Shown: piece after piece, positions 2,515 to 62,214 of the stretch | Layout of the letters: the number at the start of each line of letters is the position of its first letter | Position numbering within the stretch: the stretch's first letter is position 1 | IMG/VR virus record: IMGVR_UViG_3300046710_000146 | Span: 1-64,000 of that record | Length of the DNA stretch: 64,000 nucleotides | Strand: one strand, 5' to 3' | Source: a virus | Taxonomy: Duplodnaviria; Caudoviricetes | Translations under genes and position numbers: made by a program | Notes under the pieces: model-generated | What the model saw: the letters and a program-made list of their open reading frames with translations, nothing else | Database searches by the model: none | Told to the model about the DNA's origin: nothing

Positions 2515-2970
2515 ATGTCAGTTTCTTTTGCAACTCGCAGAATGTGGTTCAAACGTGCCCGCCGCATGGGTCTAGCGCTCACGTGGATCTTCTCTTTGGT
2601 TTCATATGTACTGCCGCCAATGTGGATCTTCTGGTTCTATCGTGCGTGGTTCAAGACGTGGAAGAATCGCTCGGGCGATGGATTCGTTTTTGGCTGTGTA
2701 CTGCAACTTGCCGTATTTGCGGCCATTGGTTTTACCACCTGGCAGATGCATCTCAGTCGAGACGCCACACCAGATGAACTGCGGAATGCGCGCGCGGCCG
2801 ATGCTTGCTTTGACAACACAATCGTTCGCCGCGCTGCTGCTTGGGACCGCCCAATCACCGTGCGCGATGTTTGGGTCACACAAGAGGACTGTGCTAAATT
2901 TCTGGATGACATTGCCCGCAAGAAGGCACAAGCCACCGTATTGAAACAACAACTTGGAAATAACAAATGA
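2515..2970 (+). CDS. hypothetical membrane protein
   Basis: GGAG SD, two hydrophobic segments. Confidence 0.7.
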   Translation: MSVSFATRRMWFKRARRMGLALTWIFSLVSYVLPPMWIFWFYRAWFKTWKNRSGDGFVFGCVLQLAVFAAIGFTTWQMHLSRDATPDELRNARAADACFDNTIVRRAAAWDRPITVRDVWVTQEDCAKFLDDIARKKAQATVLKQQLGNNK

Positions 2971-3419
2971 GACTTTATTCCTTCGTAAATTACTACCTGT
3001 CGCAACTTCAGGCCGGATTACAAACTGCGCATTGTGTCAGCAAGATGAGCGTCTCGTACAACGCCGAAACAGTTGAGCGCGATACATATCGCGACTGGGC
3101 TGTGAATTACGAAACAATCATCATCTGCAATGGTGGGAACTCCGCGATGCTTGAGGATGTGTTCAGCACGCTCGCCGAGCATGCTGAGCAATATGAACTG
3201 CCACTCGTGAAGTTCTACGAAGATGAGCAATCGCTGAACAACGCCTTGACCTCGGTGGCGATCGTCGTGCCTGCACGGTTCTATGATGCGAAGTTCGTCA
3301 AGGGTCAAGAAGGGCTCGGCGACTGGTATGTGAACGTAGAGAACCCCTCTGACTTCTTCCAGGAAGGTTCACCTGAGTTCGCGTTCATCTCATTCCTGAA
3401 ATCCTTTCGATTGGCTTGA
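2967..3419 (+). CDS. peptidyl-tRNA hydrolase 2 (PTH2)-like protein
   Basis: LQAGLQTAH, TIIICNGG and FYEDEQSLNNALTSVAIVVP pattern resembles the PTH2 fold. Confidence 0.5.
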   Translation: MRLYSFVNYYLSQLQAGLQTAHCVSKMSVSYNAETVERDTYRDWAVNYETIIICNGGNSAMLEDVFSTLAEHAEQYELPLVKFYEDEQSLNNALTSVAIVVPARFYDAKFVKGQEGLGDWYVNVENPSDFFQEGSPEFAFISFLKSFRLA

Positions 3420-54292: not shown

Positions 54293-55995
54293 CAAATACT
54301 CCTAAAGATCAGAACTATTTAGCAAGTTCGTACATTAGTTCAACACACGATTGGGACTCCGACAAGATTCTTGTTTGGGAGCGCCCAATTGGTGGGGGTG
54401 AACGACGCGTCGTAATGCACGATGCCCCACGGTACTTCTACGTGCCGGATGATGAGGGTGAGCATACCGCAATTGATGGGGTGAAGCTCAAGAAGTTCGT
54501 GTTCGATTCGAAAGATGAGTTCACGGCTGAAGCCCGGCGCCATCGCATCAAGTATGAAAGCGATATCCAGCCCGAGGCCCGACTGCTGATGGAGGCGTAC
54601 TACGGGCGCCCAACACCAGTCGTGAACTACGCGTTCCTCGACATCGAGGTTGATTACTCCTCGAAGATTGGTTGGAGCTCGCCAGAGAATCCGTACGCCC
54701 CGATAAACGCGATCACGATCTTCCAGTCATGGACAGGTAAGTACCTGACGTACGCGGTGCCACCAAAAACCTGGAAGGGTGATGAGGCTACGCTGCAGCT
54801 TGAAGTCCAGCGACTCTGGAAAGAGCACAAGCTGGACTTTGTACCCGATGTCACGATCTGTAAGACTGAGCGTGATCTGCTGTTGTATATGCTCGGTGAT
54901 ATCGAGGATGCCGACATAATCAGCGGCTGGAACTCTGAGTTCTTCGACAACCCGTACATCATCAAGCGACTTGAACGAGTCCTTGGTAAGAAGGGTCCAG
55001 GGCACATGTCATTCAAGGGGGCACGACCCCCTGCTGAACGAATCGTGAATCGATTTGGATCGCCCGCGATCACGTTCACTTTGTACGGTAGAACACACCT
55101 TGACTATCTTGATCTCTTCAAGAAGTTCACGTTTGAAGGGCGGGTCTCATACTCACTCGCGAACATCGCGGCTGAGGAGCTTGACGTTCCGAAGCTCGAC
55201 TATCCAGGTACGTTGGAGCAGCTGTACCATAACGACTTCGCACATTTCATCACGTATAACGCCCGCGACGTTGAGGTGCTTGTGCAGCTGGATATGAAGT
55301 TCAAGCTCATGCAGCTTGTGAACCAGATGGCACATGAGAACACCGTGCCGTTCATGGCAATTCTTGGCACCGTCCGATACGTTGAGACTGGGATGATTAA
55401 TCGTGCGCACAACGCGCACAACTTGATCGTGTGCGACAAGAACATGTCGGGCGAGTTGAATGAGAAGGTTGAAGGCGCCGTGGTGATGACACCTCGTGCA
55501 GGTCTATGGGAATGGATTGGTTCAATCGATCTTACCTCGCTGTACCCAAGCACCGCCCGCGCCCTGAACATGTCGATTGAAACCTTCGTTGGGCAGTTCG
55601 TTGATGAAGAGCGTGCATGGGAAGGTATCCGTGCCAGAGATGACAATCCATGGGAGGCCGTGATCTCCCATGAGAGCATCACGGCTACTGGGGCTCAGTG
55701 GTTCGAGTACCTACGAGCCGAGAACTATGCAATCTCTGGGTTCGGCACGATCTTCGATCAGAACAAACCTGGAATCGTTGCGGACACCCTGACATATTGG
55801 TTCAATGAGCGGCTTCGGCTACAGGCCAGTAAGAAAGCCGCGATTGCGGAGGTTAAGACGCTCAAGGCAACCTTGGGTATTCCCGCCCCCGCAGGGCTAC
55901 TTATCAAGGAAATGGCTGATCATGATCCATCATCAAAATTAGACGAAGGACTGTCAATTTATAACGACGACGATGGAATGCCAAATCAACTATGA
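54277..55995 (+). CDS. family B DNA polymerase, N-terminal subunit (exonuclease plus motif A)
   Basis: FLDIE, GWNSEFFD, YNARD and SIDLTSLYPS. Confidence 0.92.
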   Translation: MPEMSSNTPKDQNYLASSYISSTHDWDSDKILVWERPIGGGERRVVMHDAPRYFYVPDDEGEHTAIDGVKLKKFVFDSKDEFTAEARRHRIKYESDIQPEARLLMEAYYGRPTPVVNYAFLDIEVDYSSKIGWSSPENPYAPINAITIFQSWTGKYLTYAVPPKTWKGDEATLQLEVQRLWKEHKLDFVPDVTICKTERDLLLYMLGDIEDADIISGWNSEFFDNPYIIKRLERVLGKKGPGHMSFKGARPPAERIVNRFGSPAITFTLYGRTHLDYLDLFKKFTFEGRVSYSLANIAAEELDVPKLDYPGTLEQLYHNDFAHFITYNARDVEVLVQLDMKFKLMQLVNQMAHENTVPFMAILGTVRYVETGMINRAHNAHNLIVCDKNMSGELNEKVEGAVVMTPRAGLWEWIGSIDLTSLYPSTARALNMSIETFVGQFVDEERAWEGIRARDDNPWEAVISHESITATGAQWFEYLRAENYAISGFGTIFDQNKPGIVADTLTYWFNERLRLQASKKAAIAEVKTLKATLGIPAPAGLLIKEMADHDPSSKLDEGLSIYNDDDGMPNQL

Positions 55996-57356
55996 ACCTC
56001 GCACAAATTAAGAAGCAGTTGAAATCCGGAGATCTGATTCTGGACGGGGGGAAACTGTACACAAAAGAAGAGTGGGAGCAGATCAAAGCAAAGCAAGCTG
56101 AAGCAGATCACTACGATTTGCTTCAGCTCACGAAGAAGATTCAGCTGAACTCGGCATATGGTGCGCTCTTGAATGAAGCCTTCCGTTTCGGTCGTCGCGA
56201 AATCGGTGCGTCAATTACTGGCACTGGTCGCCAGATCACGAAGCACATGGGGCAGACGATTGGGACCCTTGCAACTGGGAACAAATGCACGTTCGAGAAG
56301 CGCTATGGTGACTTCAAGAACAAGAGCACACGCGCTGGGTCGTTTGAATCAGGCGAGCTGTACGGTGAGTGGCTCCAAGCTGAGAACTTCGAAGCGCTCC
56401 GTAATCTGCCGCAAGAGCAGCAATGGACACGGAAGTTCAGCAAGGAAAAGAACGCCGAGGTTGATGTCGGTTCCGGTGCAATATGGTTCACAGAGTGCCC
56501 AGCAATCATCTATGGTGATACTGACTCGTGCTACTTCTTAACGTACGGAACAGACTACGACGAGGCGGTTGCGCTAGCTGATGAGATTGCAACGCAAACG
56601 AACGCGACATTCCCAGCGTTTATGCAAGAGGCATTCAACTGTACAGGCGGTCGAGAGCTGTTGATCAAAGGCGCTCGTGAAGTCGTAGCTGAGCGTGGAC
56701 TGTTCATGCACATTAAGAAGAAGTACACGTTGCGTGTTGTCAATCTCGATGGGTATGATCTGCGGTCAAAGCCGAAGTTGAAGTCCATGGGATCTGAGAT
56801 CAAGAAAGCTGACACGCCAAAGGTGGTGCAGGACTTCTTGAAGGATCTGATGGACCTGGTACTCACCGGTAAACCGTACGCCGCAATGGAGGAGTTCATA
56901 AATGCACATCGTGGATCGTTGATCGGCGACGCGAAGGATGTGCTTGAGCTTGCAACCGCGAAGCAGGTGAACAACTTGGACGCGCTGTACGCTGAGTACA
57001 AGCGCACCGAGAAGATCAATAATGGAAAGATGAAGCACTGCCCAGGTCACGTTCGTTCCGCGATAAACTTCAACGAGATGCTTGAGCTCTTCGATGCAGG
57101 TGGAATGCAACCGCTGAAGGCGGGTGACAAAGCCGCGATTCTGTACTTGAAGGACAACGCATACAGGATCAACTCAATTGGGTTTCCACCTGACATGCAG
57201 CACCTCCCTGACTGGTTCGTCGAGAACTTCGCGGTCGATCTACGAAAGACCGAAGAGAAGATGATCGATAGCAAGGTTTCAGGGATCTTCAAGGCCCTTG
57301 GATATGAGACCCCAACCCTGCAGATGGCGCACCTGAAAAGCTCCTTCACATTCTGA
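55992..57356 (+). CDS. family B DNA polymerase, C-terminal subunit (motifs B and C, thumb)
   Basis: KIQLNSAYG, YGDTDS and KKKY. Confidence 0.92.
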   Translation: MNLAQIKKQLKSGDLILDGGKLYTKEEWEQIKAKQAEADHYDLLQLTKKIQLNSAYGALLNEAFRFGRREIGASITGTGRQITKHMGQTIGTLATGNKCTFEKRYGDFKNKSTRAGSFESGELYGEWLQAENFEALRNLPQEQQWTRKFSKEKNAEVDVGSGAIWFTECPAIIYGDTDSCYFLTYGTDYDEAVALADEIATQTNATFPAFMQEAFNCTGGRELLIKGAREVVAERGLFMHIKKKYTLRVVNLDGYDLRSKPKLKSMGSEIKKADTPKVVQDFLKDLMDLVLTGKPYAAMEEFINAHRGSLIGDAKDVLELATAKQVNNLDALYAEYKRTEKINNGKMKHCPGHVRSAINFNEMLELFDAGGMQPLKAGDKAAILYLKDNAYRINSIGFPPDMQHLPDWFVENFAVDLRKTEEKMIDSKVSGIFKALGYETPTLQMAHLKSSFTF

Positions 57357-60359: not shown

Positions 60360-60676
60360 ATATAACGGACCCTAACACTCCAGGTACCCCGTCTTCTCGG
60401 TTCACTCATCTCTTAGGTGAGCTTGATAAGCGGTTCCCAGACAAAAGACCGTTCTCGGCCGATCCCGCCGAGGGTCGATACCTAAACGAGATCGATCGTA
60501 TAATTGCTAAGACTGCCGATAAGCTCGTGCATCAGGTGAAGCTTGATGACTGGGCGCATGTTGTGCGGGTGATGAAGGAATACAAGAAGAAGGTCCATGC
60601 TCGGTACTACCTGCATGTGTCCGAGCTAAAAGAAGGATATCGTGTGAAGATCTTCAAGCGAGCTGCATATGATTGA
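60356..60676 (+). CDS. hypothetical protein
   Basis: ATGA overlap. Confidence 0.65.
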   Translation: MNITDPNTPGTPSSRFTHLLGELDKRFPDKRPFSADPAEGRYLNEIDRIIAKTADKLVHQVKLDDWAHVVRVMKEYKKKVHARYYLHVSELKEGYRVKIFKRAAYD

Positions 60677-61211
60677 TTACGCCCGGCTTGGGCGATCAGT
60701 CGAGCACTACGAGAAGGTTGGGTACACTCACGTTGAGGTGCCTTGGACCGTCACCCAAGCGGTGTCGAATATCACGAAGCCGCCAGGTGCTGGCGAGTAC
60801 TTGATAAACAGCAAGAATAAAGTGCTTGTTGCCTCGGGTGAGCAAGGATTTCTGTACCTCGCCCTAAAGGGGTTCTTGCCACCTGGGAAATTCCAAGCGA
60901 TTACGCCGTGTTTTCGTGATGAGCCATTCGATGTCTCGCACACGAAGTACTTCATGAAGAACGAGCTGATCATCACCGATGATCCGTCTATCGAGATGGT
61001 CAAGAAGATCATAGGCGATGCGTTGGAGTACTTCCATACTGAGCACCCAACGGGGGTGCTGCGCGTAGTTGAAACCGCGGTGGGGTGCGACATCGAGCTG
61101 AATGGCATTGAGCTCGGTTCATATGGGTTACGAAAGACGAGCTTCCTGACCTGGGTGTACGGCACTGGGCTGGCTGAACCCCGATTTACAATGGCGAAGA
61201 ACGCAGCATGA
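60669..61211 (+). CDS. stand-alone class II aminoacyl-tRNA-synthetase-like catalytic core (180 aa)
   Basis: motif 1 GYTHVEVP, motif 2 PCFRDE...YFMKNEL, ELGSYG, motif 3 GTGLAEPR. Confidence 0.75.
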   Translation: MIDYARLGRSVEHYEKVGYTHVEVPWTVTQAVSNITKPPGAGEYLINSKNKVLVASGEQGFLYLALKGFLPPGKFQAITPCFRDEPFDVSHTKYFMKNELIITDDPSIEMVKKIIGDALEYFHTEHPTGVLRVVETAVGCDIELNGIELGSYGLRKTSFLTWVYGTGLAEPRFTMAKNAA

Positions 61212-61390
61212 TTGAAAAAACTAAACTAGAACCCTGCCAAGGGACATGTGAAAAGCACGTCGGAGAAGTATCCGAAGTCGCTGTTTCAGGGTGGGGGACA
61301 TTCTTCTACTGCGAAGAGGCTATTGCAGAAGATAAACGTCGTGGGCTTACCGTTTACAAGGTGCAGAAAAGAGAAGCGCAACATGATTGA
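61208..61390 (+). CDS. small Cys/His-containing protein
   Basis: CQGTCEKH...YC; ATGA overlap. Confidence 0.6.
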   Translation: MIEKTKLEPCQGTCEKHVGEVSEVAVSGWGTFFYCEEAIAEDKRRGLTVYKVQKREAQHD

Positions 61391-61991
61391 GCTAACAGAC
61401 GCGGCTGAGCGGTTCTATAATATGAACCCCCGTGAATATCACAATTACGATCATCACGCCAATGATGTAGTCAGACAAATTTTTACACTCTGTGAAAAGC
61501 CGTCGAATGCACTTGTTCTTGCTGGCGTGTGGCACGACGCCATTTATTTTCCTGGCGCTGATCAAGTTCAGAAGGCGCTGAATGAACACGCCTCGGCAGC
61601 GGCGTTGTTCAGCACGCACAAGACCTTGCGGTCTAAGGTGAAGCAAGCGGATGTGGATCAAGCGATGGTGCTTATCATTGGGACCTGCATCGATGAGCAC
61701 CTATCAGCGCTGCCAAAATCAGGTGATCAAGCGATCTTGATGGACGCGGATCTTGGTGGGTTGGCGGCGCCGTGGCTGCAGTTCATTGATAGTCAGGAAA
61801 AGATCATCCGTGAGAACAATGCCGAGGTGAATGAGACCTCGCTGCGTGCATGCTCCACATTCTTAACTCGGTTGCTGAACTGCCGTCCACATCTGTATCA
61901 CACTGATCTGGCTCGAGAGCTTTATGAAGTCAGGGCCAAAGCGAACATCATTGCATTTGAGGTGCTACATAATGAGCTACCATCTAGCTGA
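61383..61991 (+). CDS. HD-superfamily phosphohydrolase
   Basis: REYHNYDH, WHDAIY, NE..SA and DADL. Confidence 0.8.
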   Translation: MIELTDAAERFYNMNPREYHNYDHHANDVVRQIFTLCEKPSNALVLAGVWHDAIYFPGADQVQKALNEHASAAALFSTHKTLRSKVKQADVDQAMVLIIGTCIDEHLSALPKSGDQAILMDADLGGLAAPWLQFIDSQEKIIRENNAEVNETSLRACSTFLTRLLNCRPHLYHTDLARELYEVRAKANIIAFEVLHNELPSS

Positions 61992-62214
61992 AATTGAACG
62001 GGGTGTATTCGGCGAGTTCTCCAAGATCGAGGAGGAGTTCCTCGAGGCGAAGGATGCCCTAGCACAGGAGAACCCGGTGATGGTTCTTCAAGAGCTGAGC
62101 GACATGCTTGGCGCCATTGAGGCGTACACTGCCAGATACAACATCACGCTGATTGATTTGATCATCATGAAGGACGCCACGAAGCGTGCATTTGAGAGCG
62201 GACATCGGTCATGA
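61972..62214 (+). CDS. MazG-like all-alpha NTP pyrophosphohydrolase
   Basis: KIEEEFLE...QELSD; GAGG SD. Confidence 0.7.
   Translation: MSYHLAEIERGVFGEFSKIEEEFLEAKDALAQENPVMVLQELSDMLGAIEAYTARYNITLIDLIIMKDATKRAFESGHRS

Follow-up and report, generated by a model that had tools for sequence, protein, structure and literature searches.

Several class II aminoacyl-tRNA synthetase cores without an anticodon domain, such as HisZ, AsnA, EpmA/GenX and the carrier-protein ligase Bll0957, are used outside translation. Synthetases, SerRS included, also make Ap4A, and there are descriptions of synthetases that adenylylate ppGpp. Among the MazG-like proteins of phages, one that bears on those considered here is Atd1 of Pectobacterium phage PcCB7V, which was found by Ho et al. 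in a screen of ORFs shorter than 200 aa flanking phage nucleotidyltransferases (bioRxiv 10.1101/2022.06.09.495361). According to this preprint, Atd1, which was studied alone and reported to be active, hydrolyses ppGpp with a Km of about 50 uM, and of what appears to be the substrate panel (ppGpp, rNTPs and c-di-GMP) the rNTPs and c-di-GMP are not cut. It is also reported to lower cellular (p)ppGpp and to relieve the toxicity of TIR-STING and retron-TIR. A review also terms Atd1 NTase-adjacent. The word ‘synthetase’ is absent from the main text of the preprint, and a search of the literature found no study of a mini SerRS core. Finally, the Z-genome pathway (PurZ, the HD enzyme DatZ and MazZ) resembles the present locus in that both place a ligase next to an HD and a MazG-type hydrolase, within the replication region of a phage.

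The locus was found in a 64,000-nt window, that is, the whole stretch of DNA analysed here, which corresponds to positions 1 to 64,000 of the IMG/VR virus record IMGVR_UViG_3300046710_000146 (113,862 bp). The completeness of this record estimated by CheckV is about 32%, and the window is therefore part of a large phage. A DNA polymerase fragment, a clamp-like protein and an FEN-type exonuclease are encoded upstream of the block of interest. For the ORF at 55992-57356 (+), the match to profiles of family B DNA polymerases is confined to their C-terminal part (positions 573-851 of the 856 in phrog_262), which is consistent with a split polymerase. Downstream of this replication block, four genes on the + strand overlap start to stop, as had been pointed out in a preliminary description of the window, whose protein identifications (a class II core with motifs 1, 2 and 3 and without a tRNA arm or anticodon domain, an HD protein and a MazG-like protein) also appear to be right. 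The four genes are as follows:

60669..61211, + strand: mini SerRS-like class II catalytic core, 180 aa (phrog_4806, AF2 model, structural match to SerRS)
61208..61390, + strand: Cys/His ORF, 60 aa, a weakly supported lineage-specific insert (no family match, low codon signal)
61383..61991, + strand: probable HD-superfamily phosphohydrolase, 202 aa counted from the ATG, a lineage-specific insert (phrog_19425, Atlas look-alikes)
61972..62214, + strand: probable small pyrophosphohydrolase of the MazG/HisE type, 80 aa, a homologue of the protein that is probably Atd1 (phrog_6408, acidic residues)

The starts of the genes overlap the preceding stops, with start/stop overlaps of 4, 8, 20 and 4 nt. 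Three of the junctions, at the gene starts 60669, 61208 and 61383, have ATGATTGA in common, a string in which the start codon overlaps the TGA stop of the gene before it, and the corresponding proteins begin with MID, MIE and MIE, respectively. For the 80-aa gene, the ATG giving MGYH, the N-terminus of the family, was taken as the start. A megablast search of the region against phages gave no match, and ARAGORN found no tRNA or tmRNA gene in the window or in the whole record.

The 180-aa protein carries motif 1 as GYTHVEVP, motif 2 as CFRDE...YFMKNE and motif 3 as GTGLAEPR, and matches phrog_4806 with an E-value of 1e-39. Its AF2 model, based on an alignment of 126 sequences, has a pLDDT of 97.3 and a pTM of 0.92, and the matches of this model in Foldseek are class II catalytic domains only. 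In an exhaustive structural scan SerRS came top, with Z-scores of 18-20 (maximum 20.1), 178 of the 180 residues aligned, an rmsd of 2.3 Å and 19-23% identity. The further class II matches were HisRS and HisZ (Z 15-18), PylRS (17), Bll0957 (16), and AsnA and EpmA (about 14), and the cores known outside translation span Z 13-18 as a group. Since 178 of the 180 residues are aligned to class II catalytic domains, the core is without an extra domain; it begins at motif 1, and neither an N-terminal coiled-coil tRNA arm nor an anticodon domain is present.

The profile of the core family also places SerRS first when compared with PDB (E 1.3e-7). In the profile alignment, S56-x-E58 corresponds to the SerRS TxE motif, R83 to the motif 2 arginine, F95-K97-E99 to the QFxKvE strand, and T166 and R172 to the GT...R segment, and the motif 2 loop lacks about 6-7 residues relative to that of SerRS. 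Among the 126 sequences, S56, E58, R83, F95, K97 and E99 are invariant, and P25, E148, S151, R155, T166 and R172 are nearly so. Judged from the alignment, the serine-site positions of SerRS, namely TxE, the FxKxE glutamate and the Thr/Ser before motif 3, are apparently kept as S56/E58, E99 and T166. Because of the fold, the SerRS-first profile match and the conserved active-site residues, the core is read as SerRS-derived, with an ATP and amino-acid site that is apparently intact and, to judge from the model, with no part to recognise the body of a tRNA.

Compared with SerRS, therefore, the fold is the same and the TxE, motif 2 RxE, FxKxE and GT...R residues are kept. However, the core has only 180 aa, lacks the coiled-coil arm, has the shortened motif 2 loop, is near-obligately linked or fused to a MazG-type protein, and stays below the curated cut-offs of Pfam and NCBIfam (17 bits versus 25 for tRNA-synt_2, and 17 bits versus 237 for pheS). 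The likeness to HisZ, AsnA, EpmA/GenX and Bll0957 is also incomplete, because all of them are larger than the core in the window and none is known to have a MazG/HisE enzyme as its partner; the window locus shows no HisG, carrier protein or EF-P-type acceptor, and no neighbour gave a PP-binding match. The core family comprises at least 1,487 clusters at 50% identity, and nearly all members have 175-210 aa. A natural class II core of 180 residues whose active site appears intact would be about as small as a synthetase domain gets, which bears on the reuse of synthetase paralogues outside translation.

The 80-aa protein matches phrog_6408 with an E-value of 2e-26, and it scores 14.7 bits against PRA-PH, below the cut-off of 21.3. 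In an alignment of 22 sequences, 19 residues are invariant, including E21, E22, E25, D28, E41 and D44, so that the EExxE...D and ExxD metal-binding acidic motifs of the MazG/HisE type are invariant in the family, and the serine in the ELxD segment is not conserved. The Atlas look-alike clusters of this protein carry PRA-PH/MazG and are mostly viral. A search with the MazG-family profile against PDB gave no match, and the hhalign comparison of the MazG-like alignment, made with one bona fide MazG only, was uninformative. Three helices are predicted for the MazG part in the AF2 model of a core-MazG fusion. Both the core and the MazG-like protein are probably catalytically competent, since their active-site residues (in 126 core sequences and in the acidic motifs of MazG, respectively) are invariant or nearly so.

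We then compared 48 loci, comprising 22 from IMG/VR, 6 GenBank phages, 19 genome or MAG contigs and the window. The MazG gene is beside, near or fused to the core gene in 45 of them: directly downstream in 18, directly upstream in 11, 170-1,017 nt away in 12, and fused in 4; in the other 3, the examined flank of the core contains no MazG gene. The core occurs in 276 phage records and the MazG-like protein in 259, with almost identical genus tallies (hosts). Fusions were also found in five further cluster representatives and in ORF129 of Microcystis phage MaMV-DC, and the AF2 model of a fusion has a pLDDT of 95.4 with a well-ordered linker (>80); a search for long forms returned no fusion form of more than 315 aa, which is weak evidence. 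In a quick tree, the ‘downstream’ order makes up one clade that includes the window, fusions appear in at least three places, and the gene order differs between clades. Consequently, the linkage has outlived rearrangement. The pair is found across hundreds of phages, the phi92 and rV5-type phages of E. coli among them, and in some tiny-genome microbes (CPR).

The conserved linkage, which the preliminary description had set as its own test, thus holds for the core and MazG (45/48) and fails for the HD and Cys/His genes, which are absent from all 47 loci other than the window, 27 viral loci included. Therefore, the conserved unit is a two-gene module of core and MazG with lineage-specific inserts. 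The pair is a class II paralogue with a new partner, to which the window adds one member with an unusual HD insert. No third enzyme or arm-bearing partner is conserved beside the pair across lineages. YqeY was considered as a conserved partner and rejected, its adjacency being limited to one lineage (Justusliebigvirus). The closest relatives are P0002 (83%) and P0003 (79%); among the loci the nearest to the window is L006 (58% identity), where MazG comes immediately after the core.

The pair also occurs on three CPR and proteobacterial MAG contigs of 0.25-1 Mb (L046, L050 and L037), and core and MazG are fused in Woesebacteria, Woesearchaeota and one Saccharibacteria MAG. The flanks of the pair on the three contigs are cellular (NrdR, radical SAM, YibE/F, Mur ligase, Nudix, a uridine-kinase family protein and peptidases), and no phage genes were seen in them.

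As for the genes between core and MazG in the window, the 202-aa protein matches phrog_19425 ‘phosphohydrolase’ with an E-value of 1e-15, its Atlas look-alikes by feature and structure are HD-superfamily proteins, and the HD-type motifs YHNYDHH and WHD can be read in its sequence. It has no Pfam HD match, no meaningful sequence match in PDB and no tblastn match among 50,697 phage records. The YfbR-like HD protein of 5 related loci was rejected as its counterpart, the sequences being unrelated. The 60-aa Cys/His ORF, which overlaps both neighbouring genes, has no family match and no relative in IMG/VR; among the three frames, its own has the best codon signal, with a delta of 0.22 that lies below the 5th percentile of true-gene windows, and it is a weakly supported gene. 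Because L006 has MazG directly after the core and the inserts that other lineages carry at this site are unrelated, the HD gene and the Cys/His ORF are local insertions outside the conserved module, and the core-MazG junction appears to tolerate insertions. Examples of such unrelated genes are an 82-aa Cys-rich ORF (L010:6600-6848), which was rejected as a relative of the Cys/His ORF, and a 188-aa ORF (L018:6536-7102). Pfam has no family for the inserted or extension domains in other lineages, these two inserts included.

The window MazG is homologous to the MazG of the PcCB7V module, QQG33500, which likewise lies near a mini SerRS core (phmmer E 1.4e-12, 39% identity, all invariant residues kept). 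QQG33500 is two ORFs from the nucleotidyltransferase QQG33502, and the mini core QQG33497 is about 1 kb further. Table S1 of the preprint (bioRxiv 10.1101/2022.06.09.495361) lists QQG33502 as the one nucleotidyltransferase of PcCB7V, and the only other MazG of this phage is 30 kb away. From these positions we infer that Atd1 is QQG33500. What is new here is that the MazG partner of the module is, by sequence, homologous to the protein that Atd1 probably is; it should be noted that the ppGpp hydrolysis was reported for Atd1 alone, of which the window protein is a probable homologue.

In PcCB7V (MW367417), the pair, an RlaP-family nucleotidyltransferase, which is the NTase of the Atd1 screen, a PTH2-like hydrolase and a CCA-adding enzyme form one block at 100.5-107 kb, with a 207-aa ORF and a small opposite-strand ORF between MazG and core. 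A 340-aa neighbour in the IMG/VR loci was considered as a homologue of the PcCB7V nucleotidyltransferase and rejected as unrelated, and no RlaP nucleotidyltransferase is present in the 113,862-bp record. Consequently, PcCB7V is the only one among the loci examined with a nucleotidyltransferase linked to the pair.

Then, what might the pair do? The reading that we put first, although tentatively, is that core and MazG make up one two-enzyme unit acting on an alarmone-type nucleotide, and not a translation synthetase. The two proteins would act together, as a single physical unit, on a nucleotide bearing pyrophosphate, as suggested by the tight linkage, the repeated fusion and the confidently modelled fusion, and the most likely substrate pool would be (p)ppGpp or an adenylylated alarmone. 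Given its conserved catalytic residues, the core would make an aminoacyl-adenylate from the ATP and the amino acid that it binds, serine or a similarly small one, and its MazG partner would cleave the alarmone-type nucleotide. As a result, host starvation and abortive-infection signalling would be damped during phage replication, and in the window phage the HD protein inserted between the two may add a nucleotide-hydrolysing activity. The complex of the two proteins, the production of an adenylate by the core and the contribution of the core are all inferred. That the core is not a translation synthetase is suggested by the 178 of 180 residues falling within the catalytic core and by the shortened motif 2 loop. 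The preliminary description had named three possible functions, namely an amino-acylated or amidated nucleotide, signalling nucleotides made and erased to counter defence, and the modification of a protein or tRNA; of these, the erasing of signalling nucleotides gains support from the probable homology to Atd1.

Some points count against the alarmone-type reading. Atd1 is active alone, which leaves the role of the core unaccounted for, and its identity with QQG33500 is itself deduced from gene positions. One different phage MazG is reportedly unable to hydrolyse magic-spot nucleotides, according to the title of PMC6850273. In addition, CPR and other MAGs have the pair among cellular genes (NrdR, Nudix, a uridine-kinase family protein, Mur ligase), where general nucleotide metabolism fits at least as well as counter-defence.

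The possibility that comes next, which we consider improbable on balance but deserving of attention, is a role at the 3' end of tRNA, in which the core, needing no identity elements, binds the CCA end or serylates it and MazG removes pyrophosphate-type blocks, such as the 3'-pyrophosphate added by toxic RelA/SpoT homologues, so that tRNAs are protected or repaired. Class II cores act on A76, and the genes near the pair include an RNA ligase, a PTH2-like hydrolase (14 loci), a CCA-adding enzyme (PcCB7V) and, adjoining the pair in Justusliebigvirus, a YqeY/GatB gene, although this last adjacency is limited to one lineage. In CcrColossus and in cluster P0158, a helix-hairpin-helix domain resembling the RNAP alpha-CTD is fused, and nucleic-acid-binding additions thus recur. 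A 2022 paper reads one rV5-type neighbourhood, including a MazG-superfamily pyrophosphatase, as RNA repair, and the reported cleavage of ppGpp and not of GTP by Atd1 may be compatible with attack on a 3'-diphosphate. However, the core has no tRNA arm, and the motif 2 loop, which contacts the acceptor stem in SerRS, is shortened. Moreover, both proteins are acidic (median pI 5.5 for the core and 5.1 for MazG), the 113,862-bp record has no tRNA gene, and indiscriminate serylation would lead to mistranslation. Between the alarmone-type unit and the tRNA-end role, the hitherto unannotated pair offers a directly testable hypothesis on the way in which host alarmones or damaged tRNA are dealt with by large phages.

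It is rather doubtful that the product or substrate of the pair is an amino acid-nucleotide conjugate or a non-canonical (d)NTP, with MazG supplying or clearing the nucleotide and the core ligating the amino acid, which corresponds to the first possibility named in the preliminary description. Fusions usually join consecutive steps, and nucleotide enzymes recur around the pair, such as a class III RNR (JLBYU50), thioredoxins (an Acinetobacter phage), NrdR, Nudix and the uridine-kinase family protein in CPR, and the replication block and HD gene in the window. Nevertheless, shortened class II paralogues are not known to load a free nucleotide. A PurZ-type partner is absent from the record, and no further enzyme is conserved with the pair across lineages. 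The analogy with the Z-genome pathway drawn in the preliminary description finds no support: a search of the 113,862-bp record, itself only about 32% complete, gave no match to PurZ (PF00709), the HD gene is not conserved with the pair, and the ligase belongs to a different superfamily.

A bolder proposal, which we regard as unlikely, is that core and MazG are two halves of one undescribed enzyme that would use the aminoacyl-adenylate on 3'-pyrophosphorylated or alarmone nucleotides. Either (p)ppGpp would be adenylylated for cleavage, or the pyrophosphate added by toxins would be stripped from tRNA CCA ends, followed by re-capping. If true, large phages and some tiny-genome microbes would gain a general counter to immunity based on the stringent response or on RelA homologues.

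Slightly further down the scale, and distinctly unlikely, is a HisZ-like sensor or scaffold, in which the core binds amino acid and ATP and regulates MazG but transfers nothing. HisZ provides the precedent of a class II core without an anticodon domain serving another enzyme, HisZ and HisRS follow SerRS closely in the structural scan (Z 15-18), and the reported activity of Atd1 alone fits with such a role of the core. A purely regulatory protein, however, would not need both catalytic arginines and the Mg/ATP-site residues, which are conserved in the 126 sequences. Least of all do we expect that the four genes, in spite of their start-to-stop overlaps, are one functional cassette, as framed in the preliminary description, or that the core is a SerRS subunit in need of a partner, a highly improbable pair of readings given the absence of the HD and Cys/His genes from 47/47 other loci, the direct succession of core and MazG in L006, the unrelated inserts at the same site elsewhere and the lack of any conserved arm-bearing partner.

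Elsewhere in the window, the ORF at 2964-3416 (+) encodes a 151-aa protein that matches phrog_3668 ‘hydrolase’ with an E-value of 5e-34. The phrog_3668 member of PcCB7V is annotated as peptidyl-tRNA hydrolase and gives a weak PTH2 match. The family lies at most about 3 kb from the pair in 13 IMG/VR loci, about 4 kb from it in PcCB7V and 57 kb from it in the window.
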